Assembly (NCBI GenBank): GCA_023898345.1
Contig: CP060218.1
Location: 767,777-831,776 of the forward strand
Direction of reading: 5' to 3'
Origin: Candidatus Woesearchaeota archaeon
Lineage (GTDB): Archaea > Nanobdellota > Nanobdellia > Woesearchaeales > UBA583
DNA length: 64,000 bases
A model generated the notes under the pieces. It did no database searches. It was not told the origin of the DNA and saw nothing but the letters and a program-made list of their open reading frames with translations. Of the stretch, positions 4,114 through 61,307 are shown piece after piece. The position numbers and the translations under genes are program-made. Positions within the stretch are counted from its first letter, which is position 1, and each line of letters opens with the position of its first letter.

Positions 4114-4114
4114 A

Positions 4115-4519: not shown

Positions 4520-4578
4520 TCATGTTCATATTGATAAATGAACTCTAAAAAAATTATAGATGGTATGTAAAATAAAAT

Positions 4579-4761: not shown

Positions 4762-4897
4762 AATATTCTAAAATTTGGTTATTTTTAACACTTTGCAAAG
4801 ACTATTAACTTCAATTTAAGCGATTTACACTCAAAATAATGAGAGAAATATTTCAAAACAAGTCTTAGTCTTAAAATGTCAAAAAAGTCTTCAAATA

Positions 4898-5809
4898 TCA
4901 ATGTCTAATCACCTCCAACACTTTTTCATATTCTTTTACTGCAATCTCTTTTTTATTTAAATAATGAGTCATCCCAACATTTTTTGAAGTTGACCTTCCA
5001 GATATGAAGTTTGCTATTTCAATTGCAACTCCTGCTTTAACCATTAAAGTAAATGAATACTTTCTTAGATACTTTAAATGAACTATTTTCTTATTATCTT
5101 GGGTATGATCTACAAATCTATTGAAGTATGTTTTATCAAATTTACCAATATGTTCTTTTAATTCATTATATAATTCTAATGTAAAGAATAGATAATAAGA
5201 TGATTTCTGACCTCTTAAATAGAAATTATTGTAAGTAACTATGCCGTTTTCATGTATTTCTATGTTCTTTTCATCAAAATTTTCAAAGAAATGTTTAACT
5301 TCTGTTGTCCTAGCTGTTGTTTCAATATAGAATCTATATAATAAATAATGTAATCTATCATATTTAGATACTTCTTTTACAGAGTTTTTAATCTCCAAAC
5401 ATGTAGGAATATAAGTATCAATATGAACTTCATTGTGAATTTTAATTCTTCTTCGGATGTTTTCAATTATATCTAAGTCTAATATATCAAACTCTTCTAA
5501 GTAATTCAGCCATACTCTAATTGCAACTCCTCCTTGTCTTTTGTTAATTTTTTCAAGAGCAATAGCATTTTTAATCTCTTCAATGGTATTAACACTAATC
5601 TCTTCAAACAATTTAGTTAGACAATTAAAAACAGATACTGCGTAAGTTCTTGTGAACTTTTTTAAAGTATATACTTTATATTCATTTTTTGTCTTAAAGT
5701 ATATACTTTTTAATTCTATAAAATTTTGATTTTTTGGCGTAAAATTTTCTAAATTTTGAGAAATTTGCTGTTGATTAGAAATTTGTGAGGAGGCGTATTT
5801 GCCCCCTAG
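4898..5809 (-). CDS. Tyrosine recombinase / integrase (N-terminus uncertain)
   Basis: C-terminal HLKYLRKYSFT...GRS...GMTHY resembles the H-x-x-R ... Y catalytic region of tyrosine recombinases; track ORF runs on to 5980 through the tRNA, which is unlikely to be coding; no in-frame ATG after the tRNA, first TTG is much further in. Confidence 0.55.
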   Translation of the reverse strand, partial: LGGKYASSQISNQQQISQNLENFTPKNQNFIELKSIYFKTKNEYKVYTLKKFTRTYAVSVFNCLTKLFEEISVNTIEEIKNAIALEKINKRQGGVAIRVWLNYLEEFDILDLDIIENIRRRIKIHNEVHIDTYIPTCLEIKNSVKEVSKYDRLHYLLYRFYIETTARTTEVKHFFENFDEKNIEIHENGIVTYNNFYLRGQKSSYYLFFTLELYNELKEHIGKFDKTYFNRFVDHTQDNKKIVHLKYLRKYSFTLMVKAGVAIEIANFISGRSTSKNVGMTHYLNKKEIAVKEYEKVLEVIRH

Positions 5810-5812
5810 AGA

Positions 5813-5894
5813 CGCCAAGACTGGGATTTGAACCCAGAATTCCGAAGGAACTACATTAGCAGTGTAGCGCAATACCGAGTTATGCGATCTTGGC
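5813..5894 (-). tRNA. tRNA-Ser (anticodon GCU)
   Basis: Manual fold of minus strand: acceptor GCCAAGA/TCTTGGC, anticodon stem CTACA/TGTAG, loop CTGCTAA, long variable arm TTCC..GGAA, T-arm CTGGG-TTCAAAT-CCCAG, discriminator G. Confidence 0.8.
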
Positions 5895-5923
5895 ATTAGG
5901 TCTCTTTTTTTAGTCGCCGCCGG

Positions 5924-5958
5924 ATTAGCAGTGCTGCGCAATACCGAGTTATGCGACC
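5924..5958 (-). repeat. Partial duplicate of tRNA-Ser 5' half (32/35 identical to 5855-5889)
   Basis: Direct repeat attagcagtg(ct/ta)gcgcaataccgagttatgcga(c/t)c about 30 bp 5' of the tRNA on the same strand. Confidence 0.6.
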
Positions 5959-6041
5959 TCAGCTCGATGAAGATAAACAAGTAAACTTGCTATCAAAAAG
6001 TGATAAGCCAAATCTCTTTTAAAAGATTTTGCTTCTTCCCT

Positions 6042-8773: not shown

Positions 8774-9829
8774 TTATTTCACTTCAATAATCTCACTGCA
8801 CAGCGCCGCCAAATCTTTGTCCACGTGTTGCCCCGTCATAATACATTCATCCTTTACTTTGGCTAAAACAGAGTTCACATTCTTTTTATCTAAAAGTTTT
8901 CGTTCGAGAGCATCTAGTAGTTCATCTGCAACAACGGGAGTACGTTTTCGAAGAGCTGTCTCCAAAAGTTGCATTGCTGCTTTTGCCTCTCGGATGTCCT
9001 GCTCACTCGTCCCTTCTCTGTACGCACCCCGCATTCTGTCGTAACGCGAAGATCCTGTAACTGCAAAATCGAAATTTCCATAAAGAGCATTTTCACTGGA
9101 CCAACGTTTTAAGGCTATGAAAAAGTCACGTTCTGGATACAAGGGGTCTGCTTTGTCGAAGTAGATTAACTTTGGACTTTTCTTTTCAATAAATGATAAG
9201 ATTAGTCGACCAAAGGCATATGATGATTTTCCTCTCCCATTTCCTATAATCGCACTTAAAGACTGTTGTTTGAAAGGGTTCCCTTGCTTTTTGTACACAA
9301 TCTCACTTGTAAGTTGAAACTCTGAACTTAAGATATCCTGCTCCTTTTCATTAGAAGAAAGAAATACGAATTCTGTTCTTGGACTACGTCTACGAAGAAA
9401 AGCTAGGAGCGGAATCTTCTTTATAGTCTGAAGGGAGCAATGGTCAAAAATTACTAATTCGTATGTATCAAGCTGCCGCCAGAAAAAAGAAACATCTAAG
9501 TTTGAAAACTCAACCTGTGGAATAATACTTTGTGAAAGTTTAGTTTCATCAAGAAAGGTGTACAAATCAATACGCATTCTCGGTAAAGAATGAACAAATT
9601 TTTGGTTCAAAGAAATATTTTCTAGAAACTGGTGTAATTTTCTTGCATTTTTCTTTTCAGAAACAAAGGCCGTCCTCAAACCTAAACTCGCTCCCTCAAG
9701 AAGAAGACCAACGCTTAAGGGAGAAAGCTCAGAACTTGTCCTGTCCTGAAAATACCTTGATTTTGCTAGACTTCTTTCAATCATACAAGGCCTTTTTTGT
9801 AGGGCTATATAAAAATATGCGTGTGTCAA
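8774..9829 (-). CDS. Hypothetical protein with CobA/CobO-like P-loop segment
   Basis: IIGNGRGKSSYAFG resembles the GNGKGKTTAAFG loop of corrinoid adenosyltransferase-like proteins; weak. Confidence 0.3.
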   Translation of the reverse strand: MTHAYFYIALQKRPCMIERSLAKSRYFQDRTSSELSPLSVGLLLEGASLGLRTAFVSEKKNARKLHQFLENISLNQKFVHSLPRMRIDLYTFLDETKLSQSIIPQVEFSNLDVSFFWRQLDTYELVIFDHCSLQTIKKIPLLAFLRRRSPRTEFVFLSSNEKEQDILSSEFQLTSEIVYKKQGNPFKQQSLSAIIGNGRGKSSYAFGRLILSFIEKKSPKLIYFDKADPLYPERDFFIALKRWSSENALYGNFDFAVTGSSRYDRMRGAYREGTSEQDIREAKAAMQLLETALRKRTPVVADELLDALERKLLDKKNVNSVLAKVKDECIMTGQHVDKDLAALCSEIIEVK

Positions 9830-10726
9830 TCCCGAAAAACTCCCTTAAACAAATGTTTAAATTCAGAAGAGATAAATCTTATTTTTATGGAACATTCTGA
9901 AGCCCTAGAAATTATAGAAACTTATGATTTAACTCCTGGACAAAGAGAATTTCTTTTTGAAAGGGCTCCTTCTTATGCTGATTCTACTTCGAATTTTCCT
10001 GCTCTTTATTCGCTGATTGCAGAAGCAGTCTCTTTCTTGAAACAACCTCTCCCTGAAAAAATGGGATTAAGTTTGGAAATGCGTCTATCTCCTACGGATG
10101 AGAGAACTTTAAAAGATGTTCTTGGTTACGAAGCACCCAGAATATTTGAACATGACATTCAGTACAGAACAGAGCAAATACGTAACATTTCACGTTTTTC
10201 TTTAGAAAAAAGAATGTCTTTTGATTTGTTAGAATTTTTTACATCTCTTGTCCTTCACAGTAGCCTAGAACCTGAAGACTATCAAAGGCTCCTCGAAACT
10301 GTAAATCCTGAAAAACTCTTAGAAATTTCATCTCGTTTAAAACAGGTAAAAGAACGGATTTTTGATAAAGAAGAATACTTTCTTAACATAATAGGAATAA
10401 AATCTTTTGATCCATTACAGATAAAATTTCTAAAACAAAGAAACTATAATGGAAATCCTTTAGCTTTTTTTAGAGAATATTTTCCTCTTTATCAAGGAAT
10501 GTCTAGATCAGAATTAAAGTCTTTTGACGTTGGTCTATACCAAGCACTGCGTTTACATGGACAAATACACTTGGCCATCCCAAGGAATAAAAAGAAACCT
10601 TCAGAATCAGATATTGCGCGAATTCAACGAATTTTTGAGTCTTATAATAGAAACAAAAGAGAAACTGCCCGTTTTCTTGGTATTACTAGCCAAACAGTTG
10701 CAAAATATATTCGTCCACAAAAATAA
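9821..10726 (+). CDS. Hypothetical protein with C-terminal helix-turn-helix
   Basis: C-terminal RETARFLGITSQTVAKYI resembles a Fis-type HTH; start codon uncertain. Confidence 0.35.
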   Translation: MCQSRKTPLNKCLNSEEINLIFMEHSEALEIIETYDLTPGQREFLFERAPSYADSTSNFPALYSLIAEAVSFLKQPLPEKMGLSLEMRLSPTDERTLKDVLGYEAPRIFEHDIQYRTEQIRNISRFSLEKRMSFDLLEFFTSLVLHSSLEPEDYQRLLETVNPEKLLEISSRLKQVKERIFDKEEYFLNIIGIKSFDPLQIKFLKQRNYNGNPLAFFREYFPLYQGMSRSELKSFDVGLYQALRLHGQIHLAIPRNKKKPSESDIARIQRIFESYNRNKRETARFLGITSQTVAKYIRPQK

Positions 10727-10773
10727 CTCCTTTTTTCTCCTCTCCTTCCACTTTGTTCGTTTGCTAGATAACG

Positions 10774-10805
10774 TTCTCGAAGTTAAAAACTTCTGCGGAA
10801 TACTA
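10774..10805. repeat. Conserved imperfect-palindrome repeat, copy 1 of 4 (GTTCTCGAAGTTAAAAACTTCTG.GGAGCA)
   Basis: Near-identical cores at 10774-10805, 33735-33790 (interrupted), 40544-40576 and 57352-57384. Confidence 0.6.
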
Positions 10806-10874
10806 TATACTAAGAAAGAAGTATAACTCTTTAAAACACTTACTATCTTAAAACTTCCTTCTGAGCTATTTTTC

Positions 10875-11234
10875 TTATTTGTCCTGAAATACTCCCTTAA
10901 CTTCAAGCTGAAAACTTTCAATCTCGCCAGGAACCTTGTCTTTTAGAAAATCCAAATTCTCCAACTCAAAGTGAACGATCTTTCCCGTCTCTGTGCACTC
11001 GAAATGACAATGACTTCTTTTTGTAGAAGAATAAATAGTCTTTCCTTGACAGGTGTACGAATAAATCTGATTCCTTTCTCTCGCATCCTTGAGGAAACGA
11101 TAAATTGTTGCAATACCTATTTTTTTATCGACTTTTGCGACTTTCTCTAACAAGGCTTCAGCATTGAAAAAAGTTTTTGTCTTTCTAATCTCCTCCTCAA
11201 TAACTTCCTTTTGTCTTGTTTGTCTGCTTTTCAT
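10875..11234 (-). CDS. Fur-family metal-responsive regulator (likely Zur)
   Basis: Fur-like DNA-binding N-terminus and HCHFEC/CQGK metal sites; adjacent to zinc uptake genes; ATG at 11234 preferred over track TTG at 11255. Confidence 0.7.
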   Translation of the reverse strand: MKSRQTRQKEVIEEEIRKTKTFFNAEALLEKVAKVDKKIGIATIYRFLKDARERNQIYSYTCQGKTIYSSTKRSHCHFECTETGKIVHFELENLDFLKDKVPGEIESFQLEVKGVFQDK

Positions 11235-11235
11235 C

Positions 11236-11258
11236 TTATTGAGAATCAAAGTCAATTA
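11236..11258. promoter_or_regulatory. Candidate Zur operator TTATTGA-N9-TCAATTA between TATA-like box and regulator start
   Basis: 7-bp inverted repeat spaced by 9 bp; same motif upstream of both zinc operons. Confidence 0.45.
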
Positions 11259-11573
11259 TTTTATAAGACTTGCGAGAAACAGAAACAGAAAAAGCACAGA
11301 AAATACAAATTTTTAAATCGAGTTCCATTTTTCCCAAAAATGAAAACACATTCTGATTTTTTTCCTCAAAAACAAACGTATAGAATACTTACAAAAACCT
11401 TATCTCTTTACGAACTCTCAACCCTAAATCCAGCAAAATACAATTCTCTAACACTCAGACTTCTAGGAACACTAAACCCTGACTGGAAACAAGTTGAAAA
11501 CAAACTATTAGAAAAATTTTTAGAAAGCTATTTGGAAATTCCTGTCTCCTCATGCACAAATAAGAGAAAAAAT

Positions 11574-11714
11574 AAGTAAAGAAATCGCTAAAATATGCCT
11601 ATCCCAATCGGAGCAGAGCTCCGGGGCATTACGGCAATTTTCAAGACGCGATTTCTAACTCCCAGCTGGGTGGTCGCAGCAGAGCTGCGGGGTATAAATA
11701 CCCAGCTAAGGAAT
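11574..11714 (+). repeat. 141-bp intergenic repeat, copy 1 (about 98% identical to 31333-31472)
   Basis: Manual alignment: two substitutions and one 1-bp indel; contains palindrome CCCAGCTGGG and internal direct repeat GCAGAGCT(C/G)CGGGG. Confidence 0.7.
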
Positions 11715-11836
11715 CATTGGAACAAGAGCCCAGAGTACAGCCTTACTATCTCCTCTCCCTCAAAACAAATCCTTGAACTCTCACAAAGAAGAAGATATAG
11801 ATTTTGAAAGAATTTTTCTAATAATTGTCCTGAGAG

Positions 11837-11870
11837 TTATTGATAATAAGACTCAATAATATTTATAAAA
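11837..11870 (+). promoter_or_regulatory. Candidate Zur operator (TTATTGA-N9-TCAATAA) plus TATA box TTTATAAAA for the first CobW-type gene
   Basis: 34-bp block identical to 14208-14241; TATA about 25 bp upstream of ATG 11892, implying a leaderless transcript. Confidence 0.5.
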
Positions 11871-11891
11871 TTCCTTCAGTTGCACTTGAAC

Positions 11892-13175
11892 ATGGAAAAC
11901 AAACTCCCCGTTACACTCTTAAGTGGCTTTTTAGGCTCAGGAAAAACAACACTCCTCAATCACATTCTCCACAACAGAGGAAATCTAAAAGTTGCCGTCA
12001 TTGTAAACGACATGTCAGAAGTAAACATCGATGCAAACTTGATTAAAAATGGCGACGCCAAACTTTCGCGGACAGAGGAAAAACTCGTCCAAATGGAAAA
12101 TGGTTGTATCTGTTGTACACTGCGAGAAGACCTTCTAGTAGAAATAAAAAAACTTGCTGAAGAAAAAAAATTTGATTATCTTGTTATCGAAAGTACTGGC
12201 ATAGCAGAACCCCTTCCCGTAGCAGAGACCTTCACCTTTGCCAACGAAAAAGGAAACTCCCTCTCCGACTTTGCGCGCCTCGACACCATTGTAACCGTCG
12301 TTGATGCCTTTAATTTCTTCAATGATTTTTATTCAAAAGAATCTCTCAATGAAAGAGGAGAAAGTTTAGGAGAAGAAGACGAAAGAACCATTGTGAATCT
12401 GCTTGTCGATCAAATTGAATTTTCAAACGTAATCATTCTCAATAAGATTGAAAAGTTACAAGAAGAAGAAAAAAAGAAAATTAAAGCAATTATCAGAAAT
12501 CTCAACAGAGACGCCAAAATACTCGAGACCTCCTACTCAAAAGTAGATTTGAAAGAAATCATACATACAAAGCTCTTTGATTTTGAAAAAGCAGCTCAGG
12601 CTCCTGGATGGCTAAAAGAATTACGAGGAGAACACACTCCAGAAACAGAAGAATACGGAATTTCTTCCTTTGTGTACAGAGCGCGAAAACCTTTTCACCC
12701 AGAAAGATTAAAGGCCCTTTTTTCTGCTAAACTTTTTTCAGGAATTATCAGAGCGAAAGGATATTTCTGGATTGCTACAAGAAACAACATTGCTTTAACT
12801 TTGGCGGTTGCCGGAAAAATTCTAGAGTACAGCGTTGCAGGTTTCTGGTATGGGACAATGCCAAAAAAAGAAATTCAAAAAGACAAGGAACTTTGGGACT
12901 ATCTAAAAACAGTCTGGGAAGAACCATTTGGCGACAGACGACAAGAACTTGTGTTCATTGGAACTGACTATAATAAAGAAGAAATTATGAAAGAACTCGA
13001 CAAAGCACTTTTAACAGACGAAGAAATGAAAGTATCTCCTCAAGAATGGAACACCACCTTTACAGACCCCTTTCCAAAATGGGACATCCCAGAAGAAAGT
13101 GAAGAAGAAGCAGAGAAAAGATTTCAAGAAGAATTGGAAGCTATTCAAGAAGAAAAAGAAAAAATCTTAGGATAA
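11892..13175 (+). CDS. CobW/COG0523-family GTPase, putative zinc metallochaperone
   Basis: [10 protein letters not shown]-loop, CICCTL motif, CobW-like C-terminal domain; ATG 11892 preferred over track TTG 11880. Confidence 0.8.
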
Positions 13176-13177
13176 AA

Positions 13178-14191
13178 ATGTCTTCTTCACCTTTTCCAGA
13201 TACAAGAATCCCTCTTATAATTGTAACAGGATTCCTAGGTTCAGGAAAAACAAGCTTTGTCAACCACATTCTAGCATCACTTACAAACAAAAAAGTTGTC
13301 GTTATAGAAAATGAATTTGCAGAATTAGGTATTGATTCTCGTATTATCAAAAAAAGTAAAGACTCAAAAATTTTTGAACTAAACAATGGCTGTATTTGCT
13401 GTTCTATGAATGGAGAATTGGAAGGCGTTTTTGCCGAGATAGTAAAAAACAAAGAACACTGGGATTATGTCATCATAGAGACGACAGGCGTTGCAGACCC
13501 TTCTCCCATAATCAGCAATTTCTTTTCAAATCCTTTGCTCTGTGAAGAATTTAGACTAGACTGCATGTACACACTTGTCGACTGCAAAAACTTTTTCAAA
13601 CAAATCCAACGAGAATACGAAACAAAAAAACAAATTGCCTTTGCGAACAAAATACTCCTTAACAAAATAGACCTTGTTGAAGAAGAGGAAAAAGAAAAAA
13701 TAAAAAAAGAAATCTCAAAACTCAATCCAGATTCACAGATAAGCGAAACAACACACGCCAAAATTCCACTTCAACACATTTTTGAAGAATCTGCCTTCGA
13801 TATTTCAGATCTTAAAAAGATAAAGAATTCTTTCCAATCCTTTAGTTTTTCTCCCTCTCTTGCACCCTCAGTTCTGACAAAGCCAGTACAAAGTCACGAC
13901 ATACAGTCATTTGGCATTTCCAGTGAAGGCGAAATACTTCTCCCAGAATTTGACTTTTTCATAAGAACACTCATAGAGCTCAAAAGAAATGACTTGTACA
14001 GAACAAAAGGCATCGTCAATCTCAAAGGAGCAAATCAGCCCCTTATTTTTCAAGGAATTCATGATGCCATAGAATGGTTTCCCGGTCCACCATGGGGAGA
14101 AGATGAAAAGAGAGAAACAAAAATGATTTTTATTGGAAAAAATTTGGATAAGCAGGACATTGAAACTGCATTTAAGAAAATTCTTCACTAA
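13178..14191 (+). CDS. CobW/COG0523-family GTPase, second paralog
   Basis: [10 protein letters not shown]-loop and GCICCSM motif. Confidence 0.8.
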   Translation: MSSSPFPDTRIPLIIVTGFLGSGKTSFVNHILASLTNKKVVVIENEFAELGIDSRIIKKSKDSKIFELNNGCICCSMNGELEGVFAEIVKNKEHWDYVIIETTGVADPSPIISNFFSNPLLCEEFRLDCMYTLVDCKNFFKQIQREYETKKQIAFANKILLNKIDLVEEEEKEKIKKEISKLNPDSQISETTHAKIPLQHIFEESAFDISDLKKIKNSFQSFSFSPSLAPSVLTKPVQSHDIQSFGISSEGEILLPEFDFFIRTLIELKRNDLYRTKGIVNLKGANQPLIFQGIHDAIEWFPGPPWGEDEKRETKMIFIGKNLDKQDIETAFKKILH

Positions 14192-14206
14192 AAGTTTTAT
14201 CTCCTG

Positions 14207-14240
14207 CTATTGATAATAAGACTCAATAATATTTATAAAA
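14207..14240 (+). promoter_or_regulatory. Candidate Zur operator (cTATTGA-N9-TCAATAA) plus TATA box for the znuABC operon
   Basis: Identical to the motif at 11838-11871; ATG at 14261. Confidence 0.5.
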
Positions 14241-14260
14241 TAAAATACAAATCTTAGAAT

Positions 14261-15235
14261 ATGAAAAAAAGTCTCGTTTTCATTATGCTCCTTATCGGAG
14301 TTCTTCTTGCATCATGTAGCAGTACAAACACAAGCCAACAAAGTACAAAGCTAGCTGATGAAAACTCTCTCTCTGAAAAACCGACAATCGTAACAACCTT
14401 TTATCCCGTCGAAGAAATTTCCAAAGCTATTCTTGGCGACACAGCAAATGTCGAAGTTCTTGTCGGCTCTGGCGTCGAACCGCATTCGTACGAACCAACT
14501 CCGACACAAATCATAGAACTTTCCAAAGCAGATTCCTTTGTCACCATGGACGGAATGTTTGAACACATTGAAGAAGCAATTATAGAAGCAAACCCAAGTA
14601 TCAAAGTAATTCCGGCAACTCAAAATCTCCCTCTTTTGAAAAATGAAGAAGAGGATGAACACGATCACGAAGATGAAGAACATGACGAGCACGAAGAAGA
14701 AGAGCACGAGCATGATCACGGGGAATACGACCCGCATGTTTGGCTTTCTATTGAGAACATGAAAACGATGACACAAGACGTTCTCGACCAACTTATTGTT
14801 TTGTACCCCGAACACAAGGACATGTACGAAGCAAACGCCAAAGCCTACGAAGAACAACTCGACGAACTTGAAACCCAATACACACAAACACTCAGCAATT
14901 GTTCACAAAACATCATCATCGTCAATCACAAAGCCTTTGCCTACCTTGGACACGAATACGGATTTGAACAAATTTCCGTTGCAGGATTCACGCCAGAATC
15001 AGAACCAAGTCCAAAAGCAATACAAAATGTCGTAGACGAAGCAAAAGAACACTCCCTCAAATATGTATTTTCAGAAGGACAAATAGACCCAAAAACAGCA
15101 CAAACAATTGCCGATGATATAGGAGGAGAAGTACTTGAACTTTACCCTATCAAAATGAACGAAAACCAAAACTACTTTTCCATCATGAGAACAAACTTAG
15201 AAAAACTAGCAATAGGACTAGAATGTTCAAATTAG
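14261..15235 (+). CDS. znuA: Zinc ABC transporter substrate-binding lipoprotein (ZnuA-like) with His/Asp/Glu-rich loop
   Basis: Signal/lipobox-like LLASCSS, acidic His-rich loop EEEDEHDHEDEEHDEHEEEEHEHDH, cluster I substrate-binding fold. Confidence 0.8.
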   Translation: MKKSLVFIMLLIGVLLASCSSTNTSQQSTKLADENSLSEKPTIVTTFYPVEEISKAILGDTANVEVLVGSGVEPHSYEPTPTQIIELSKADSFVTMDGMFEHIEEAIIEANPSIKVIPATQNLPLLKNEEEDEHDHEDEEHDEHEEEEHEHDHGEYDPHVWLSIENMKTMTQDVLDQLIVLYPEHKDMYEANAKAYEEQLDELETQYTQTLSNCSQNIIIVNHKAFAYLGHEYGFEQISVAGFTPESEPSPKAIQNVVDEAKEHSLKYVFSEGQIDPKTAQTIADDIGGEVLELYPIKMNENQNYFSIMRTNLEKLAIGLECSN

Positions 15236-15268
15236 TTTTTTAAATAGAAAAGGAAAAGGAAATCTAAG

Positions 15269-15967
15269 ATGCAAGAACCAATAATTGAAATTAAAGATTT
15301 AACATATTCTTATCACCAAGAACAAAACATACTCGAAAACATCTCTCTTTCCATACACAAAGGTGACTTAGTTGCCATTATCGGTCACAACGGCTCCGGA
15401 AAATCAACACTCGTCAAACTTATAGCAGGCTTGCTCGAACAAAAAACAGAAAGCATAACACTACGAGGAAAACTCTCCTACATTCCACAAAAAGTCAGTT
15501 CAGACAACAACTTCCCCGCCAAAGTAAAGGAAATCCTTGACCTCGAATGCTGTGATTGCAAACTACGTGACGAAGTCCTCAAAAATTTAGGAATAGACGA
15601 GTTTGTCGAAAAACAATTCAAAGTTCTCTCTGGCGGCCAACAACAAAGAGTCCTTATTGCACTTGCACTCCTTTCAAATCCAGACATCCTCATTCTCGAC
15701 GAACCGACAGTTGGCGTGGATACAAAAACCCAAGAAGACTTTTACAAATTGCTCAAAAAACTCCACAAAGAAAGAGAACTCACTATCCTCTTTGTCACAC
15801 ACGACACAGGAATGATCTCTGATTACTTCACAAAAATAATTTGCCTAGACAATAAAAAAGCGCACATGGACGAAGCAAAAAACACAGACAAAGTTCTCCA
15901 CTCTGGTTACGGAGAGCACTTCCACGAAGTCCATCATCACCACCACAAAACAAAGGAGAGCAACTAA
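15269..15967 (+). CDS. znuC: Zinc ABC transporter ATPase (ZnuC-like) with His-rich C-terminal tail
   Basis: Walker A GHNGSGKST, signature LSGGQQQR, Walker B ILILDEP, tail HFHEVHHHHHK. Confidence 0.8.
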   Translation: MQEPIIEIKDLTYSYHQEQNILENISLSIHKGDLVAIIGHNGSGKSTLVKLIAGLLEQKTESITLRGKLSYIPQKVSSDNNFPAKVKEILDLECCDCKLRDEVLKNLGIDEFVEKQFKVLSGGQQQRVLIALALLSNPDILILDEPTVGVDTKTQEDFYKLLKKLHKERELTILFVTHDTGMISDYFTKIICLDNKKAHMDEAKNTDKVLHSGYGEHFHEVHHHHHKTKESN

Positions 15968-15968
15968 G

Positions 15969-16766
15969 ATGTTTGAAATACTAAGTTACGAGTTTATGCA
16001 AAGAGCACTTTTGGGAGGAATAATTATTAGTACAGCAAGTGCGCTCATAGGAGTTTTTCTTGTCCTCAAACGACTTTCACTTTTGGGAGATTCACTCGCA
16101 CACGCTTCCTTTGGCGGCATTGCACTCGGCTTTGTCACAGGCTGGAACCCCCTTCTCACAGCACTCGCCTTTGTCACGCTAGCATCACTTGGCATCGACA
16201 GACTTGTGAACAAACTTAAAGTGTACGGAGAAAGTGCAATTGCTCTCATGCTCTCCTTTGGAATGGCACTCGCACTCCTACTCATAGGAATTGCAAAGAA
16301 AATGGACTACAATATCTTCTCCTATCTTTTTGGTTCTATCCTCACGATAAACTCCTTTGACATTGCACTCGCAGCGACAGTCTTAGCTCTCATTCTCATC
16401 TTTTACTTTTTCAACTACAAAATTCTCCTTTATTCAGCCTTCAATCAAGACATAGCGCTCGTACGAAACAAAAGAACAAAACTCATTGACAAACTCTTCA
16501 TCATGCTCAGTGCAGTAACCATAGTCATTTCCATAAGAGCCGTCGGAATCCTTCTTATCTCAGCACTTCTTGTCATTCCAGCACTCATTGGACTGCGCCT
16601 TTCAAAGTCTTTCAAATCCACAATTTTCATCGCCATACTCAGCTCTATCTGTGGCGTTCTTTTGGGAATCTTTCTTGCCTACTACTTTGATCTGCCTGCT
16701 GGAGGAACCATTGTCATGAGTCTGCTCTTTCTCTTTGTCCTGAGCCTTTTCTTTGGGAGAAAGTAA
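15969..16766 (+). CDS. znuB: Zinc/manganese ABC transporter permease (ZnuB-like)
   Basis: Polytopic membrane protein immediately downstream of the ATPase; 1-nt gap. Confidence 0.75.
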   Translation: MFEILSYEFMQRALLGGIIISTASALIGVFLVLKRLSLLGDSLAHASFGGIALGFVTGWNPLLTALAFVTLASLGIDRLVNKLKVYGESAIALMLSFGMALALLLIGIAKKMDYNIFSYLFGSILTINSFDIALAATVLALILIFYFFNYKILLYSAFNQDIALVRNKRTKLIDKLFIMLSAVTIVISIRAVGILLISALLVIPALIGLRLSKSFKSTIFIAILSSICGVLLGIFLAYYFDLPAGGTIVMSLLFLFVLSLFFGRK

Positions 16767-31332: not shown

Positions 31333-31472
31333 AAGTAAAGAAATCGCTAAAATATGCCTATCCCAATCGGAGCAGAGCTCCGGGGCATTACGGCAATTTT
31401 CAAGACGCGATTTCTAACTCCCAGCTGGGTAGTCGCAGCAGAGCTGCTGGGTATAATACCCAGCTAAGGAAT
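31333..31472 (+). repeat. 140-bp intergenic repeat, copy 2 (matches 11574-11714)
   Basis: See copy 1; same orientation, about 20 kb apart. Confidence 0.7.
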
Positions 31473-31497
31473 TATGTAGGTTTTTTGTAGCTCTCCA

Positions 31498-33483: not shown

Positions 33484-33691
33484 TACTTCTTGTAAGAGTT
33501 TCGCTTTATAGTTTTTATTTTTTCGACACAGTGAAAAAATTCTGTTTTGAGGTTGAAGGAAAATTTTGTTCGGCGCCGCTTTCAGTGATAGAAGACTTCA
33601 AAAAAAACAGATACTTGCCCTAAACATTTTTTAGCTCCTCTTTTGAAAAAGTAAAAGATACTAGAATGAATATAGTTTTCCACAAAAATAA

Positions 33692-34912
33692 TTATTTTTG
33701 TCTCTCTTCCAGTTTCTTTGTTCGTTTGCTATAGGGTGTTCTCGGAGTATAATACCCAGCTAAGGAATTAAAAACTTCTGCGGAGCACCATAGAATAAAA
33801 AACAAAACCCCTCCCATGATATAAAACCCGAGTTTGTATGAAGTGTTCATAAAAAAACCGATACTAAAAACAAGAGAAAAATTAAATACCATCGAAATTT
33901 GTCCTTTAATAGAAAGAATAGTCGCTTTGTACCTCTTATCAGCAATATAATGCTTTAGTAAATATCCATCGACAAATGTTCTTCTTCCCATTTCATATGC
34001 TCCAACAAGAATAAGAACAAAAGCTACTACATAAAAGGAATTTGAAAAAGCAATAATAAAAAATGATAACGGAAAAAAAACTGTGTCGAAAAGAAGAATT
34101 TTTTTGATAGGTAAACTTTTTTCAAATCTTCCCAGATTTTTCCCCATAAAAAACTGAAGAAAAGCGGACAAACCCAAAACCACACCAAGTGCTACAATTG
34201 GAAAGCCAAGTGTTTCTAAATATGGAAATATAAAATTTGTTTTTGCAATAGAAAAACCTGTAATTGCTCCTGTAAACGTTGCTAAAGGCAAAAATAACGT
34301 TCCTTTAACTTCCTTGAATACTTGTAACAAAGAGATATGCTTTACTGATTTTTCAGGAAGTGTTGGATTCACAAGAGACAAAGCAAAAAGAAAACCAATA
34401 CTATCAAAACCTAACCCAATTAGGAGGGGAGTTTCTAAGCTAAGCTTTGTCGTATACGGAATAAGAGTAATAAGAACTGCACTAACAAGTGAAGCATAAG
34501 CAGTTATTTTGGTACTGATACTCATAAACTCATCTTCTTTTTTCAAACTTACAAGTGTTTCATGAAGAAATGCAGCTCTTGTGCCAGACTGGGCGGCAAA
34601 GGATAAGGAGGTAAAAATTGCTCCTAAAACAAAAAAAAGTAAAGAAGCACCATAGAGAAAACTCACTACTGCTAAAATCATAAATAGTTTAGCTAAAACT
34701 AGCATTTTTTTATGTCCAATTTTATCTGAGATGTATCCACTTGGAATTTCAAAAAGAAACTCTGCCAAATATCCCATTCCAGACCAAAAGCCGATTTGAA
34801 CAGCATTTGCGTTTGGTAAAGTTAAAAAATATAGAGAAAGAATTGGAAGATAATACCTTCTCTGTGTAAGCTGAAGAATAAATAATTTCCAGATATTATG
34901 CTGTAATTCCAT
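33692..34912 (-). CDS. MFS-type transporter (C-terminal about 30 aa likely read-through of an intergenic repeat)
   Basis: About 12 TM helices; 3' end overlaps the repeat block at 33735-33790. Confidence 0.6.
   Translation of the reverse strand: MELQHNIWKLFILQLTQRRYYLPILSLYFLTLPNANAVQIGFWSGMGYLAEFLFEIPSGYISDKIGHKKMLVLAKLFMILAVVSFLYGASLLFFVLGAIFTSLSFAAQSGTRAAFLHETLVSLKKEDEFMSISTKITAYASLVSAVLITLIPYTTKLSLETPLLIGLGFDSIGFLFALSLVNPTLPEKSVKHISLLQVFKEVKGTLFLPLATFTGAITGFSIAKTNFIFPYLETLGFPIVALGVVLGLSAFLQFFMGKNLGRFEKSLPIKKILLFDTVFFPLSFFIIAFSNSFYVVAFVLILVGAYEMGRRTFVDGYLLKHYIADKRYKATILSIKGQISMVFNFSLVFSIGFFMNTSYKLGFYIMGGVLFFILWCSAEVFNSLAGYYTPRTPYSKRTKKLEERQK
33735..33790. repeat. Composite repeat: hairpin-family element interrupted by a 22-bp fragment (33747-33768) of the 140-bp repeat
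   Basis: gttctcggag + gtataatacccagctaaggaat + taaaaacttctgcggagcac. Confidence 0.55.
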
Positions 34913-38886: not shown

Positions 38887-40509
38887 TTACTGCAAAGAAG
38901 CAACCTTTCGAAGATAAGCCTTAAATTCTTCCATTACTTTTGTTCGGCCATATTCAACAAATTTCACAGAACCTGCTCTTTCGTGTCCGCCACCTTCTGC
39001 TCTTGTATAAGGATGTTCTCTCATAATTTGTCCTGCAAATTCCGGAATAGAGATCCGAGAAATTCCGTCGCTCACGCGAACTGTCAGAAAGGTCGAACCA
39101 GAGGTTGCTGTAACAATTGGCTTGTCAAGTCCTTGTTCAAAAATCTTGTGAATATGATTTGTTGTTTTTCCAACAGCAGGATATTCCCCCCTATTTGTCC
39201 CTTTTTCTCCATCAAAGTGAATAAGATAAAAAGGACCAAAATCTTCTTTTTCAGCATAATATTGTGCAACTTCTTCAACTTGTTTGTAACGCTTTTCGAG
39301 CTCAGGAGCAAGGAGTTGGACAATTCTTTCTTGTGCAGCCTTATTTTTTCCAAAAAGATCGTCAATAAATTCTCTCGATTCCTGAAATCGCAAGTAATGA
39401 GATTGCATATCGACAATTTCCCCTAACTTTGCCATGTAGTCCTGTGTATAACCTTCCGCCTCTGCTTGTACTATGTACTGATCTTTCTCTGTACCATCAC
39501 AGTGATCGAGAATAGCAGCCATCGCAGGAATAAGAACGGAGTTTGTGTGTTTGTCGTGAATGAAGTTTGCAAGTTCAAAGCCAAGCATTCCTGTACAAAC
39601 ATTCGAGTCAAACCCTTCAAGATAAGGATTGATGTGGGCTTCAATATATTTGTCAACTTCAACTTTTCCATCTTTAACCTCTCCTGGATAATGATGATCA
39701 ACAACAACAATTTTAGCGTCATACAAAAGCATCTGCTGCATTGCTAGAATATCTTCTTGTGTCGAACCATTGTCTGTAATGATAATGAGTGGGGGCTTAT
39801 ACCCGTTTTTTACTTTGTCGCGAAGCCAGTAGCATAAATCTTTGACTGCATCTTCGTATTCATAGAATGGAGCTTTTGAGGGCGCACGTCTGTATAATTG
39901 ATACTGAGACAAAAGATCGTTTCCGGTTATTTCATCCATAAAGGACAGTATTGCTCTCTCTATCGTAATTGCTGAAGAATACCCATCACAGTCGGCATTG
40001 TGTCTCAAAAGAATGGGGCGCCCTTCAAGAACTGCCTCTCTAATGATACTTGCAACCTGTACAAATCTCGGCTTAAGTTTTTCTAAAACTTCAGATTGGA
40101 TGGAAAAAGATGTTGAGACTGGCTTTACTTTGTCGAGCTGCTGTTTATCTATTGCTTTTTGGAACTTTGCACTGTCTTTGCTACTTAATTTTTCCATAGA
40201 ATATGCTTCTCCTTCTATGCTGTCCTTTCGCTCTCGAACTTCAAAGCCAACTTTGACGTCGTCTTCCAACTCAATCTCTGGATATGCTCGTGCTCCTGGC
40301 CTTAGGAAAGCTTTTAGCGTAAAATTCGCCGTCCCGTCATTAAGGACCATGAGTGTTGGCCCTGATGTTTGCTTGATCGTTTTTACTCGTGCTTGAAGTT
40401 CGAATTTCTTTCCAACATCCTCAGAAGTAATTTCTCGAAATGTTTTTGTCATTATTCTTTTGAGTGAGGGCCCGTTTATAAGATTACTGTCTATTCTAGT
40501 TGTCCACAA
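38887..40509 (-). CDS. Archaeal RecJ/GAN-like DHH-family nuclease with N-terminal OB fold
   Basis: DHH motifs RHNADCDGYSS, ITDNG, VVDHH and DHHA1 GGGHERAG. Confidence 0.75.
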   Translation of the reverse strand: MWTTRIDSNLINGPSLKRIMTKTFREITSEDVGKKFELQARVKTIKQTSGPTLMVLNDGTANFTLKAFLRPGARAYPEIELEDDVKVGFEVRERKDSIEGEAYSMEKLSSKDSAKFQKAIDKQQLDKVKPVSTSFSIQSEVLEKLKPRFVQVASIIREAVLEGRPILLRHNADCDGYSSAITIERAILSFMDEITGNDLLSQYQLYRRAPSKAPFYEYEDAVKDLCYWLRDKVKNGYKPPLIIITDNGSTQEDILAMQQMLLYDAKIVVVDHHYPGEVKDGKVEVDKYIEAHINPYLEGFDSNVCTGMLGFELANFIHDKHTNSVLIPAMAAILDHCDGTEKDQYIVQAEAEGYTQDYMAKLGEIVDMQSHYLRFQESREFIDDLFGKNKAAQERIVQLLAPELEKRYKQVEEVAQYYAEKEDFGPFYLIHFDGEKGTNRGEYPAVGKTTNHIHKIFEQGLDKPIVTATSGSTFLTVRVSDGISRISIPEFAGQIMREHPYTRAEGGGHERAGSVKFVEYGRTKVMEEFKAYLRKVASLQ

Positions 40510-40543
40510 GACTCATTCTTTTTGTCTCTTCCCTCTCACTATA

Positions 40544-40576
40544 GTGTTCTCGAAGTTAAAAACTTCTGAGGAGCAT
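40544..40576. repeat. Hairpin-family repeat, copy 3
   Basis: gtgttctcgaagttaaaaacttctgaggagcat in the divergent intergenic region. Confidence 0.6.
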
Positions 40577-40644
40577 GATAAGAAATAACCTGACTATGCA
40601 ACCTAGAAGAATTCTTATAAAGAGACAAGAATTGCTTATGCTTT

Positions 40645-56851: not shown

Positions 56852-57343
56852 ATGGAAAAAAAAGCTGAAATTCATACTGTCTTCATCTTTATCCTTTCAA
56901 TTATCATGATTCTTTTCATTGGATATCTTGTAACAAAATTTACGCTTACGTTTGTTGAAGATAAAGAAATGAGAGAAAACTCATTAATCTATACACATTT
57001 ACGAGCGGACATAGAAAAAGTTGCTAGTAATTACGGCTCTGAAAAATTTGCTGAGTATAAGGTCTCAAGCAAAGCTCAATATCTGTGTGTTGCTAGTCAA
57101 TCATTCTGTTCACCAGAGGGGACATTGTTACCTGAAAGTACTCTTGAAAAAATTCAAGTTTTATATGAAACTGGATCTAATGTTGTGTTGCTTGATAACA
57201 GTGCAATTCTGACCCACAATAAAATAGAAAATATTAATGCGGATCCTGCTTGCTTTTGTGTAAAAATTAGTAAGGGGATAATCAAGTTGTTTATTGAGAA
57301 TAGGAATAATAAGGTCTTTGTCACGCCATTGGATGATGAATAA
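56852..57343 (+). CDS. Small membrane-anchored protein
   Basis: Single N-terminal TM helix; starts 3 nt after the upstream gene. Confidence 0.4.
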   Translation: MEKKAEIHTVFIFILSIIMILFIGYLVTKFTLTFVEDKEMRENSLIYTHLRADIEKVASNYGSEKFAEYKVSSKAQYLCVASQSFCSPEGTLLPESTLEKIQVLYETGSNVVLLDNSAILTHNKIENINADPACFCVKISKGIIKLFIENRNNKVFVTPLDDE

Positions 57344-57351
57344 GAAAACAA

Positions 57352-57384
57352 GTGTTCTCGAAGTTGAAAACTTCTGCTGAGCAC
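57352..57384. repeat. Hairpin-family repeat, copy 4
   Basis: gtgttctcgaagttgaaaacttctgctgagcac between convergent genes. Confidence 0.6.
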
Positions 57385-57424
57385 TTATAGTATACGAATA
57401 CTCCTAAAACAATAAAAACTTATT

Positions 57425-58401: not shown

Positions 58402-58942
58402 TTTTTATTTTAACTTCATCCTTTCGGACAAACAATAAGAAGTACAAGATCTAAACTCGCATCAACACGGGTATCATCGCCAGTTTTGAATTGTATTCTT
58501 TGGAAAAGAAACAAATGGAAGTTTATAAATTTCACGCCTTACGACCAAAACAAAGCCCAGAAGAAAAAACTACAAAAATAGGGCACCTAGGTCTCTTTCA
58601 GAAATTTCGGCACTTTGACATGTCATTATTAAAATGTTTAAAGTATCGTTCGAAAGAAATCCGTGCTGTCTTTAGGCTGAGGATGAATTGAATGATAATT
58701 TGTACAACAATCTTGGTATACTCATTTGAAACTCCGTAGAATCCCCTTCTTTTAAGCTGAGAAGTTTGAAGTTTTCTAGCACTTCAATCAATTTTAAAAG
58801 TACAGAGGATTTACAAAAGACTTATCCTTCATAAATATTTTCTAGATTAACCCTGAGACTTGCCAAGGTAAGACCAAAACTGTAACTTTTGAAACTCTTA
58901 GGCAGTCCGTGGACATACCACAATCGAGCAATGTAACTGTTA

Positions 58943-59065
58943 CTTACGAGCAGCGAAAGCCATTGTTCGTGTTCGAGTTAGAAGGACCATTGTTCAAGTT
59001 CAGAGCAAAGGCACCCGCGTTTGCACCATTGTTCCAATTGCCCCCGGACAGGAAAACACCCTTTG
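58943..59065 (-). repeat. DGR template repeat (TR)
   Basis: 123-bp match to 59971-60093; 17 of 19 differences are at TR adenines on the minus strand; TR reads KGVFLSGGNWNNGANAGAFALNLNNGPSNSNTNNGFRCS-stop. Confidence 0.8.
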
Positions 59066-59106
59066 GCTTTTGTATTTGTTTTGATCAGGAATTCCACTTC
59101 CTTTTC

Positions 59107-59481
59107 TTAATATAAATTTGAGGTATACTTCTTTAGTAATCCTCCCAATAACTTACCGAGTAGTTCTGATTTCTCAAGCATTAATAGATATTGATTAAAT
59201 GGCAGAAAATGCAAATCCTTTGCTATCCTAAGAAGAAGTTTAAATTTGTCAAAAAGATAACTTATTTTCCGTAACTGAGAACTCTTATCTTTTTGGTTTA
59301 GTCTTGTAAATTTATCGAGTATGATTAACATTTCTAAAGCTGTTTCATCAATACTCTGCCTCAATGTAAATTTTTCACTCTTAGGGAACCTTGCAAGCGA
59401 AGGATACAAGTTTAGATAAAGATTGTACACTTCATGATAAAGTAAAAAACCATCATCTTTCTTACCACAATTATTTTCCAT
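59107..59481 (-). CDS. Avd-like accessory protein (four-helix-bundle type)
   Basis: 124 aa, size and position between VR and TR; LYP..FPK..LRQ pattern resembles Avd family; similarity judged by eye. Confidence 0.5.
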   Translation of the reverse strand: MENNCGKKDDGFLLYHEVYNLYLNLYPSLARFPKSEKFTLRQSIDETALEMLIILDKFTRLNQKDKSSQLRKISYLFDKFKLLLRIAKDLHFLPFNQYLLMLEKSELLGKLLGGLLKKYTSNLY

Positions 59482-59836
59482 TTTTGTTGTCAGGTTGTTC
59501 CAATTTTCTTATTAGGCCATTCATGTATTTTATACTGTCCTCAAGAGTATTTGAATAATTTTCTTTGAGTATGTTCAAGTCTTTCAAAGTCGATAATTCA
59601 ATTTGAAGTTGTGATAGCAAAATCCTCACCTTGTTGTATATTTGTAACTTTCCTTTCAGAGACCAGTAATTATATCCTGCATTTAAATCGGGGAAAATCT
59701 CTATAACATGAGAGTAAGCTTTTTCGATTAATACTTTATGCCCCGTACTATTTACTCTCAAAGCATCCAATTCTTGAATTATCTTCAAGAAGTTTGGAAA
59801 ATATTCTCGATATATTGGCAAATCAAAAGCATTCAT
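59471..59836 (-). CDS. Hypothetical DGR-associated accessory protein (121 aa)
   Basis: Overlaps the Avd-like ORF by 11 nt, lies between target gene and TR. Confidence 0.35.
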   Translation of the reverse strand: MNAFDLPIYREYFPNFLKIIQELDALRVNSTGHKVLIEKAYSHVIEIFPDLNAGYNYWSLKGKLQIYNKVRILLSQLQIELSTLKDLNILKENYSNTLEDSIKYMNGLIRKLEQPDNKNGK

Positions 59837-59856
59837 TTTTCAGTATAAATTTTTGC

Positions 59857-59903
59857 GAACATGCTTCGCATGTTCTCATCCCTGGGGCGGCATTTAGCCG
59901 CCC
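59857..59903 (-). promoter_or_regulatory. Two perfect hairpins just 3' of the VR (GAACATGC-TTC-GCATGTTC and GGGCGGC-ATTTA-GCCGCCC)
   Basis: Stems read directly from sequence at 59857-59875 and 59885-59903; a GC-only stem stands out in this AT-rich DNA. Confidence 0.4.
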
Positions 59904-59962
59904 GCCAGAACTCCAGAGTACTAGAGTGCCTGAACTCTAAGTTACCATCATTCGTACAATGC

Positions 59963-61303
59963 TCATCGTGCAAAGGAGCAGCGAAAGCCATAGTCCGTGC
60001 TCGAGTGAGAAGGACCATTGTCCAAGCGCAGAGCAAAGGCCCCCGCGCGCGCACCAGAGTCCCAAGCGCCCCCGGACAGGAAAACACCCTTTGACGCACA
60101 ATATCCAGTACAAAAATCGGGATACTCATTCACATTATTATACGCACCCAAAATGTCGTAACCATCGTAATATCTCCCCATTCCTTGATTCGCATTCCAT
60201 CCATTTGAAGGAAGCTTCAAAGTGGGAACAAGACTTGCAACCTTGCCTGTGCCGTCATTGCTATGGTAACTCATCCATTGCTGGTCTCCTCCATGATATC
60301 TGTATGGTGAACCAAGACTCTCATTTGCATAGACCCAAGCGTCAACCCATTCCCAGACATTGCCTGCAAAGTCCCAGAGTACTTCTCCGTTTGACAAGTT
60401 CAAAGTTCTTCTTTGTCCTGCACATGCCCTTCCACTTGTTGTGTCATCACCAGCTACAAAGTTGTTATACGAACCATCACAAGAACTCAGACTATCTCCT
60501 GTCCCAGAGTAGCCATTTCCGTCGTCAGTGTCAGCAGCAAGTCTGCTTGAGGGACTGTTGTCGTTGTGCCCAGAGTACAAGAAACCAGTGCCAACGACAG
60601 AGGAGTTCCAGTTGCTTGCGACAAACTCAACATTGTGTGCAATCGTCAGCCTCTCTTCTTCCGTCATCAAATGAAAGCCAGAACCCAAACTCTCACACTC
60701 TACCTTTGCTGCGTTCCACGTAATCGAAGCCCAAGGTAAACTAGCAGCTTGCGATGTCGCAACACCCCCAACATTCTTTGCTTCGTACTTCATCACACAA
60801 AAATTGTGTGTGCCGAGTTCAGCATTTCCGGGAACGACAACATAGCCGTCCGGACATGGGTTCTCGTACACGTAAGAATTCACATACTCCGTCTTTGAAT
60901 AAATCCTGCCATCCGTCACAACGACAATCTCATTCTTCCCTTCGTTGGCGCAGTCACTCATAGGCAAGACATTCAAAGAATTGTTTGTCAAACCAGAAAC
61001 AAAGCAATCATTTCCGTTAATAGAAACGCTTTGGATTTTAGCATTTCCCTTCACAAAAAGAGTTCCGCCAGACAGACCTTCAACAGAGAAAGAGCCAGAA
61101 GAACTTTGTGTGTCGACATGTGAAAGTGTAGAACTAGAAAAAGATTGGTACCAGGTTTGAAATCCGAGTGCCGCCAGAATAGCAACGACAATCAGCAAGA
61201 CACTAGCGACAACAGGAGAAATAGCTTTTTTCGAAGAGAGACACGAAGAAGACATCCTAAAATTAGACGAGACAAGTTTTGGGGAAAGCTTAGTTCTGTT
61301 CAT
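59963..61303 (-). CDS. DGR target protein: N-terminal TM anchor, C-terminal C-type-lectin/FGE-like variable domain
   Basis: ATG at 61303; TM segment VVASVLLIVVAILAALG; C-terminus ...NVWEWVDAW...GGAWDSGARAGAFALRLDNGPSHSSTDYGFRCSFAR; VR is the last 41 codons. Confidence 0.8.
   Translation of the reverse strand: MNRTKLSPKLVSSNFRMSSSCLSSKKAISPVVASVLLIVVAILAALGFQTWYQSFSSSTLSHVDTQSSSGSFSVEGLSGGTLFVKGNAKIQSVSINGNDCFVSGLTNNSLNVLPMSDCANEGKNEIVVVTDGRIYSKTEYVNSYVYENPCPDGYVVVPGNAELGTHNFCVMKYEAKNVGGVATSQAASLPWASITWNAAKVECESLGSGFHLMTEEERLTIAHNVEFVASNWNSSVVGTGFLYSGHNDNSPSSRLAADTDDGNGYSGTGDSLSSCDGSYNNFVAGDDTTSGRACAGQRRTLNLSNGEVLWDFAGNVWEWVDAWVYANESLGSPYRYHGGDQQWMSYHSNDGTGKVASLVPTLKLPSNGWNANQGMGRYYDGYDILGAYNNVNEYPDFCTGYCASKGVFLSGGAWDSGARAGAFALRLDNGPSHSSTDYGFRCSFAR
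59971..60093 (-). repeat. DGR variable repeat (VR) at the 3' end of the target gene
   Basis: Aligned to TR by hand; all 11 AAY codons of TR are substituted in VR. Confidence 0.8.
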
Positions 61304-61307
61304 TTTT

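Follow-up and report, generated by a model that had tools for sequence, protein, structure and literature searches.

We investigated a 64,000-nucleotide stretch of the Candidatus Woesearchaeota archaeon contig CP060218.1 (called the window below), which encodes the ribosomal proteins S8e and L15e and an archaeal-type GTPase and is thereby recognizable as archaeal chromosome. An open reading frame (ORF) for an MFS transporter occupies positions 33692..34912 on its minus strand and encodes 406 aa; the protein is 100% identical to one annotated in Candidatus Woesearchaeota archaeon. The 3' end of this ORF runs into a copy of a short dispersed repeat, which we named the hairpin family, and the hairpin of this copy is in turn interrupted by the terminal piece of a second repeat, the 140-bp repeat. 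The most probable reading, though by no means a secure one, is that the MFS 3' end carries two stacked, mutually unrelated families of miniature repeats, both non-coding and transposon-like, through a hairpin-family insertion followed by the nesting of one end of unit 2, the second of the two palindromic units that make up the 140-bp repeat.

The conserved hairpin (GTGTTCTCGAAGTTAAAAACTTCTGCGGAGCAC) is uninterrupted at positions 10770, 40543 and 57351, and at 33735-33790 it is split by 20 nt (33748-33767). Its core (GTTCTCGAAGTTAAAAACTTCTG) is matched on the plus strand at 10773, 40546 and 57354 (at most one mismatch; no match in 100 shuffles), and a gapped pattern search finds both hairpin arms at 33738-33787 with extra sequence between them. 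In the alignment of all family copies, this mosaic copy has exactly 20 additional columns (TATAATACCCAGCTAAGGAA), placed between the ...CTCGGAG of the left arm and the TTAAAAAC... of the loop. On the plus strand, the copy thus reads as a left arm GGTGTTCTCGGAG (33735..33747, departing from the canonical GAAG by one A>G change), the insertion (33748..33767), and the loop with the right arm, TTAAAAACTTCTGCGGAGCACCA (33768..33790), this last segment being the element's right terminal inverted repeat. One and the same 22-mer, TATAATACCCAGCTAAGGAATT, is present at 33748-33769 and at 31452-31473, the 3' end of copy B of the 140-bp repeat, and it recurs on the minus strand at 62594-62615 with two mismatches; neither match is seen in shuffles. 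The maximal identity with the end of copy B is 24 nt (33747-33770 = 31451-31474). The uninterrupted hairpin has the left-hand G and the right-hand TTA as well, which leaves one and three junction bases ambiguous and a net insertion of 20 nt. The first-pass annotation had described a hairpin split by 22 bp that match the 140-bp repeat's 3' end exactly, and this description is borne out by the alignment, with the refinement of a 20-nt net insert plus shared junction bases. The insertion point is the stem/loop border of the hairpin, at the loop TA. The right junction of the mosaic (...GGAAT-TA-AAAAC) fits the loop of the uninterrupted copies (GAAGT-TA-AAAAC), and at the left junction one T is absent and the adjacent base shows the A>G change. 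The uninterrupted hairpin, intact in the three other copies in the window and in four copies from a second genome described below, is by this comparison the ancestral state.

We then investigated the source of the inserted piece. Copies A (11574..11716) and B (31333..31474) of the 140-bp repeat, both on the plus strand, are 98% identical and fold into two strong stem-loops (z -6.0 as DNA); B is the closest match to the inserted fragment. The two stem-loops correspond to two adjacent palindromic units. Unit 1, which forms the stem-loop 31333-31414 in copy B, is closed there by AGAAATCGC...GCGATTTCT. Unit 2 (31415-31474) is 60 nt long and has inverted ends of about 18 nt (16 matching positions and one gap; shuffle p < 0.0002), namely TAACTCC-CAGCTGGGTA and TACCCAGCTAAGGAATTA (reverse complement TAATTCCTTAGCTGGGTA), arranged around a small GCAGCAGAGCTGC hairpin, and in copy B it has TA on both sides. 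A full unit 2 is seen in only two copies, each attached to unit 1. The right one of the two inverted ends of unit 2 is what interrupts the hairpin loop. The third member of the family, copy C (62548..62674, minus strand), is found upstream of the reverse transcriptase (RT) gene of a diversity-generating retroelement (DGR). It is not simply a short version of the repeat: its unit-1 stem is intact (AAAGAAATCGTT...AACGATTCTTT), and a 27-nt end piece, TTTATATAATGCCAAGCTAAGGAATTA (62593-62619), is nested in the apical part, where it precedes CATTA..AATTTTCAA at a place at which A and B read GGGG directly followed by CATTACGGCAATTTTCAA. The short unit TAAT[AG]CC[CA]AGCTAAGGAAT therefore occurs in four contexts, each bracketed by TA, except for the right flank of copy A, which is CA. 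A scan of JGI metagenomes with this end piece returned three matches, all in an unrelated conserved coding region without flanking similarity, and we regard them as chance matches.

A profile search (nhmmer) of the window found exactly four hairpin-family copies, all on the plus strand, at 10702-10809, 33668-33795, 40491-40583 and, as a solo hairpin, 57351-57385. Copy c1 (10708..10805; TA flanks at 10706-07 and 10806-07) supplies the last five codons and the stop of the ORF 9821..10726. Copy c2, the mosaic (33673..33790; nhmmer E 3e-26), comprises 118 nt, that is, 98 nt plus the 20-nt insert, with TA flanks at 33671-33672 and 33791-33792. Copy c3 (40497..40578) is without the CTTTGTTCGTTTG block and lies between divergent genes, and copy c4 (57352..57387), 8 nt past the stop of the ORF 56852..57343, consists of the hairpin and right end only. 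Full-length copies have three blocks in common: TA followed by TAGTCGTCCACAAAAAT, then ...CTTTGTTCGTTTGCTATA, and finally GTGTTCTCGAAGTTAAAAACTTCTGCGGAGCAC.A before TA. The ends, 5'-TAGTCGTCCACAAAAGT...ACTTCTGCGGAGCACAA-3', form an imperfect terminal inverted repeat; in four of five full copies, and in one and the same register, 13-15 of the 20 left-end positions agree with the right end read as reverse complement (shuffle p 0-0.0035), with 13/20 and p = 0.0035 for c2. Since the left end matches the right end in this way, the hairpin is, as judged from these alignments, an internal inverted copy of the element end that abuts the right end, in an element with imperfect terminal inverted repeats. 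TA is found directly outside both ends of every copy, except for the left flank of c3, which is TC. The copies are 82-160 nt in size and non-coding, with stops in most of the six frames and no conserved ORF, and their gene context is mixed (convergent, divergent, upstream and intragenic). Together these are features of a MITE, or miniature inverted-repeat transposable element, and the hairpin family is, on such criteria, a MITE-like, TA-flanked, non-coding element of about 100 bp.

Outside the window, the hairpin was found in only one metagenome-assembled genome (MAG), CAYLKB01, which has intact hairpins (gapped-pattern scan of 185,579 species genomes; the window's own genome was not among the matches). 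The dispersed copies thus number four in the 64 kb of the window and four on three CAYLKB01 contigs, two of the latter at contig or locus ends. The GC content of CAYLKB01 is 27.5%, against a window mean of 35.8%. The middle of the element is variable, with 53 additional nt in the copy on CAYLKB01 contig L003 and a missing block in c3. Copies are 68-79% identical overall, and identity within the genome (68-73%) is not above that to the copies of the other MAG (71-76%), which indicates that the family is old. In scans of viral contigs, neither the hairpin nor the 140-bp core nor the end piece had a match. In a search of Rfam 15 over the window, only three tRNAs reached the gathering score, and permissive scans of both elements gave only E >= 2. 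CAYLKB01 is labelled as an 'uncultured Methanosarcinales archaeon', a label that looks doubtful for a genome with 27.5% GC and DPANN-like content. Its contig L002 terminates inside a hairpin-family repeat, as assemblies do at dispersed repeats, and its contig L001 has two copies in opposite orientation. The four copies in the window all share one orientation (a chance of 1 in 8), and the cumulative GC skew falls monotonically across the window.

The effect of copy c2 on the MFS transporter was examined by comparison with orthologs. Sixteen orthologs (42-71% identity; 385-410 aa) align up to an invariant leucine, Leu374, whose codon (33791-33793) sits directly at the right edge of the element. 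Homology ends there, and residues 375-406 are encoded by the element: the segment 33692..33790 on the minus strand provides the 32 codons WCSAEVFNSLAGYYTPRTPYSKRTKKLEERQK and the stop. The first-pass annotation had attributed the C-terminal 30 codons to the split-hairpin block. The tail is indeed repeat-encoded, as 32 codons and the stop; the block 33735-33790 itself spans only about 18 codons, and the rest comes from the left part of the element. Orthologs with the same C-terminal extension, named beforehand as the finding that would contradict this origin, were looked for, and the tail is common to none of the 16. Most of them are 385-393 aa long and end about 13 residues past ...IL, and two of 406 and 410 aa have unrelated tails. 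A search of 5.8 billion proteins with the concatenated element-encoded peptides returned only the protein's own MFS cluster. One member of this cluster, P0110 (367 aa; L022 2585-3226), diverges past residue 357 into unrelated downstream DNA; it probably represents a chimeric metagenome scaffold, not a strain variant, and is uninformative here. The closest orthologs beyond the same species come from contigs that carry markers of bacteria (ribosomal protein S16, TrmD, Mur ligase, POTRA) and have no synteny with the window. Given such contigs, the MFS family is common to DPANN archaea and, probably, bacteria of the candidate phyla radiation.

Removal of the element in silico restores an ortholog-like end. 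When the element is excised with one TA, an in-frame protein of 390 aa results, which ends in ...GGVLFFILFILVSFTFSKEELKNV (...FFILFILVSFTFSKEELKNV) and a stop; excision with one copy of a 9-bp flanking repeat gives an in-frame protein of 387 aa ending in ...FFILVSFTFSKEELKNV and a stop. The probable displaced native 3' end lies at 33620..33670 on the minus strand and, after the excision, reads in frame as ...(FIL)VSFTFSKEELKNV and a stop. Against a hidden Markov model (HMM) of the orthologs, these proteins score 581.1 (390 aa) and 580.5 bits (387 aa), compared with 578.6 bits for the present MFS protein. Excision by hand at the ATAG motifs leaves 378 aa ending in ...ILYSF, which is below the length of all aligned full-length orthologs. 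The displaced segment is T-rich and then A-rich, and all three of its frames look tail-like; residue similarity alone cannot choose the frame.

A second gene in the window has a repeat-encoded end. The ORF 9821..10726, which has a helix-turn-helix-like C-terminus, is a member of a genuine family, with 248 homologs. The homologs align through an invariant tyrosine in ...TVAKY and then run 5-60 or more residues further. In the window, the codon of this tyrosine, TAT, is composed of the flanking TA and the first base of copy c1, which then encodes IRPQK and a stop; TA-excision of c1 in silico restores ...AKYTKKEV and a stop. With these two genes, hairpin-family copies are found in gene 3' ends where orthologs or homologs have other tails. 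This observation, together with the significant terminal inverted repeats, the TA flanks and the presence of the family in a second archaeal MAG of differing GC content, agrees with the mobility proposed in the first-pass annotation. The modularity proposed there is likewise supported for both families: by the variable middle and the solo-hairpin copy of the hairpin family, and by the 19-23-nt end piece of the 140-bp repeat in its four contexts (the ends of A and B, the inside of the copy C stem-loop and the hairpin loop).

A possible course of events can be proposed for the MFS locus. In an old event, a hairpin-family element of about 100 bp would have inserted at a TA in the last MFS codons, with the TA as the putative target duplication. 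The native tail of 13-16 residues would thereby have been cut off, and translation would have run into the element. The empty site before this event would read ...TTTATTCTA joined to GTATC..., or ...CTA joined to TTCATTCTA.... In a second, recent event, the right-terminal 20 nt or so of unit 2 would have come to sit at the hairpin-loop TA, most likely by insertion of unit 2 at this TA followed by an internal deletion, or by an abortive one-ended insertion. An insert of 20 nt, a length not divisible by 3, shifts the reading frame in the element, and the element-encoded tail would have grown from 13 to 32 residues and the protein from 387 to 406 aa; removal of just the 20 nt in silico gives a 387-aa protein ending in WCSAEVFNSENTL and a stop. 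The fragment is identical to copy B at 24 of 24 positions and copies A and B are 98% identical, as against 68-79% among the hairpin copies, and for this reason the 20-nt event is likely to be recent relative to the hairpin insertion.

Several observations weigh against this proposal of two stacked insertions. The left junction of the 20-nt piece is not that of a clean TA insertion, so that one has to postulate either the loss of unit 2's left part or an abortive event. The TA flanks of the hairpin family are indistinguishable from the first and last bases of its inverted repeat, and the terminal inverted repeat of c3 is not significant in the shuffle test. No transposase is encoded within the 64 kb, hence the window offers no autonomous partner. 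The HMM scores of the tail models differ by only about 2 bits, as the tails are poorly conserved. The 9-bp flanking repeat (left, TAGAATGAA, 33662-33670; right, TAGAATAAA, 33791-33799) is found only at c2 and at none of the other copies, and a repeat of such quality occurs in 7.9% of random window pairs; its sequence is at most suggestive of a target duplication. No empty MFS site was found among seven same-species contigs from different samples, all of which have the identical mosaic, and the insertion is accordingly fixed among them.

The nested 20 nt might instead be a templated patch, in which a broken hairpin or stalled replication was resolved by repair or a template switch that copied 20 nt from a 140-family copy via microhomology (G on the left; TTA, or GGAATTA resembling GAAGTTA, on the right) and then returned. 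Such a patch would account for the junction bases G and TTA common to donor and recipient, for the position exactly at the stem/loop border, for the retention of all hairpin bases save the ambiguous ones and for the presence of a single donor end. However, the end piece is also nested in copy C, again bracketed by TA, and a mobile unit explains this more easily than two independent repairs with the same donor boundary. We know of no patch-repair pathway of this kind documented for DPANN archaea, and consider the patch rather unlikely. A different question is whether the hairpin element is mobile at all. It could be a conserved part of the host genome that overlaps gene ends, for instance a hairpin that stabilises or terminates RNA, a site bound by a protein, or a small RNA, with the MFS tail being lineage-specific. 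The 33-nt hairpin is nearly invariant while the remainder is 68-79% identical, even across two genomes, several copies lie in or just past gene 3' ends, and the loop, when read on the minus strand, has a T5 tract, the termination signal of archaea. Against a host function, the orientation and position of the copies relative to genes are inconsistent, the stability of the hairpin is modest (z -1 to -2.3), Rfam has no match, the CAYLKB01 contigs break at the element as they would at dispersed repeats, and inverted terminal repeats with TA flanks are transposon features. An explanation by host function is thus improbable.

Two further explanations concern the origin of the 19-23-nt piece. In copy C it reads TTTATATA, which resembles a consensus archaeal TATA box, upstream of the RT gene; the tRNA promoters in the window have similar boxes about 28-30 nt upstream, and copies A and C face downstream genes. 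The piece could accordingly be a functional cassette under selection, namely an archaeal core promoter from TATA box to start site or a protein-binding site, and the 140-bp repeat would be promoter-bearing. This is very unlikely, as in copy B and in the mosaic the piece faces a gene 3' end or the antisense strand, a separate TATA-like box (CTTTTTAAAG) precedes the start codon of the RT gene by about 28 nt, the 24/24 identity reflects copying rather than convergence, and no related sites are found in the JGI metagenomes. It is barely credible that the fragment is a 5'-truncated retro-copy, for which RNA of the 140-bp repeat would have been reverse-transcribed from its 3' end by the DGR RT and the short cDNA integrated at the hairpin. 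The RT belongs to a standard DGR with Avd, template repeat (TR), variable repeat (VR) and adenine-specific mismatches, nothing element-like lies upstream at four homologous RT loci, DGR RTs are not known to mobilise other RNAs, and the TA on both sides of unit 2, together with its inverted ends, speaks for transposition as DNA. These points stand against the facts that the fragment is the exact 3' end of the donor and nothing else, that copy C lies some 60 nt upstream of an RT gene in the window and shares its orientation, and that the 140-bp element folds strongly. We also considered an extension of the preferred reading of two stacked repeats, in which the TA-bracketed end piece moves or is copied alone and the hairpin loops of one family are preferred landing sites for another. 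We would regard this as a long shot. If true, it would mean that BIME-like mosaics (after the bacterial interspersed mosaic elements) exist in a DPANN archaeon and repeatedly re-frame gene tails, with a mobile or copy-pasted unit of unusually small size and a targeting of repeats by repeats that is undescribed in archaea.

The DGR near copy C is complete and lies on the minus strand at 58921-62533, with the RT start at 62533, a target protein with its C-terminal VR at 59949-60093, small ORFs including bAvd (59107..59481), and the TR at 58921-59065. With one exception, the mismatches between TR and VR are at TR adenines. A link between the 140 family and the RT gene was considered and rejected: upstream of four RT homologs (56-75% identity; one, on L017, with the order RT-target-Avd) there is nothing similar, and the RT gene has its TATA-like box, a motif that also precedes tRNA-Lys. 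Between the RT and the DGR target gene, at 61307-61483, we found a perfect 13-bp tandem repeat (TCTGAACCCTGTC) in 13.6 copies. Because 13 x 3 = 39 nt keeps one frame open, the RT and the target are fused into an 856-aa ORF (RT homologs have 346-372 aa). Elsewhere in the window, copy A of the 140-bp repeat lies between a small ORF (11211..11579) and the first cobW gene. An apparent zinc-uptake cluster at 10875-16766 comprises a Fur-family regulator, two CobW-type GTPase paralogs and a ZnuABC-like transporter. Positions 1-6000 have a GC content of 24-28%, compared with about 37%, and encode McrBC and a UvrD-helicase/PD-(D/E)XK nuclease; an integrated island or a defence locus is a possible interpretation. 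In the region 5811-5959, 36 nt of tRNA-Ser (5855-5890) recur at 5924-5959 with 92% identity. NCBIfam gave no names for the small neighbouring ORFs.

The site illustrates how very small non-coding repeats reshape the ends of proteins in a reduced DPANN genome. Two genes of the 64-kb window have repeat-encoded termini, and in one of them, if the reading of two stacked repeat families is correct, a later nested insertion of 20 nt re-framed the repeat-encoded tail, so that the MFS C-terminus would have been rewritten twice. For annotation, the last 32 residues of the MFS protein, and of its database cluster, are repeat-derived and unfit for homology or structure inference. The case is a tidy but ordinary one of small selfish repeats that stack and alter a C-terminus. 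It adds two uncatalogued mini-repeat families and one nested example to a sparse archaeal record and leaves current understanding unchallenged.

The hairpin family can be compared with several known systems. It is like the TA-flanked prokaryotic MITEs (such as those derived from IS630/Tc1-mariner elements) and the elements enclosed by Correia repeats (CREE) of Neisseria in its size of about 100 bp, its non-coding nature, its terminal inverted repeats and its TA flanks, as well as in its dispersed copies, internally deleted subfamilies and insertion near or into gene ends. The Correia repeat starts with 5'-TATAGTGGATTAACAAAAA (tatagtggattaacaaaaa) (PMC5039591), which resembles the TATAGTCGTCCACAAAAAT of the hairpin family. 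The host here is, however, a DPANN archaeon and not Neisseria, and the likeness concerns one end only, may be due to chance and is a resemblance only. Unlike in these MITEs and CREE, the right end is doubled into a hairpin consisting of an internal inverted copy and the end itself, and the TA duplication is a candidate only. Palindromic repeats that remodel ORFs are known from the Rickettsia palindromic elements (RPEs) and other intragenic MITEs (review PMC10969869). The MFS case is like them in that a small palindromic repeat sits in an open ORF and the protein is partly repeat-encoded. It differs in that the extreme C-terminus is replaced and the stop supplied, whereas RPEs are in-frame internal insertions. 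Enterobacteria have mosaics of repetitive extragenic palindromic (REP) sequences and BIMEs, and insertion sequence (IS) elements such as IS1397 target REP hairpins. As in these, short palindromic units occur here in varied mosaic orders, with a second element in the loop of a palindromic unit. In contrast to them, no RAYT/TnpA_REP-type gene was seen, the units are longer, AT-richer and equipped with inverted termini, and the insert is a 20-nt fragment instead of a whole IS. The palindrome-associated transposable elements (PATEs) of haloarchaea, which derive from IS200/IS605, are alike in having an archaeal host, a non-coding sequence and hairpins near both ends. An assignment to this type was rejected, since the inverted termini are significant here, the window has no TnpA/TnpB and the excision at the ATAG motifs leaves too short a protein, while PATEs have neither inverted termini nor target duplications and insert 3' of a fixed tetra- or pentanucleotide. 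A 2024 census (PMC11602168) counts a Woesearchaeal genome, with 105 MITEs per Mb, among those archaea for which the MITE density is reported to be highest, and the seven elements in the 64 kb of our window match this density.

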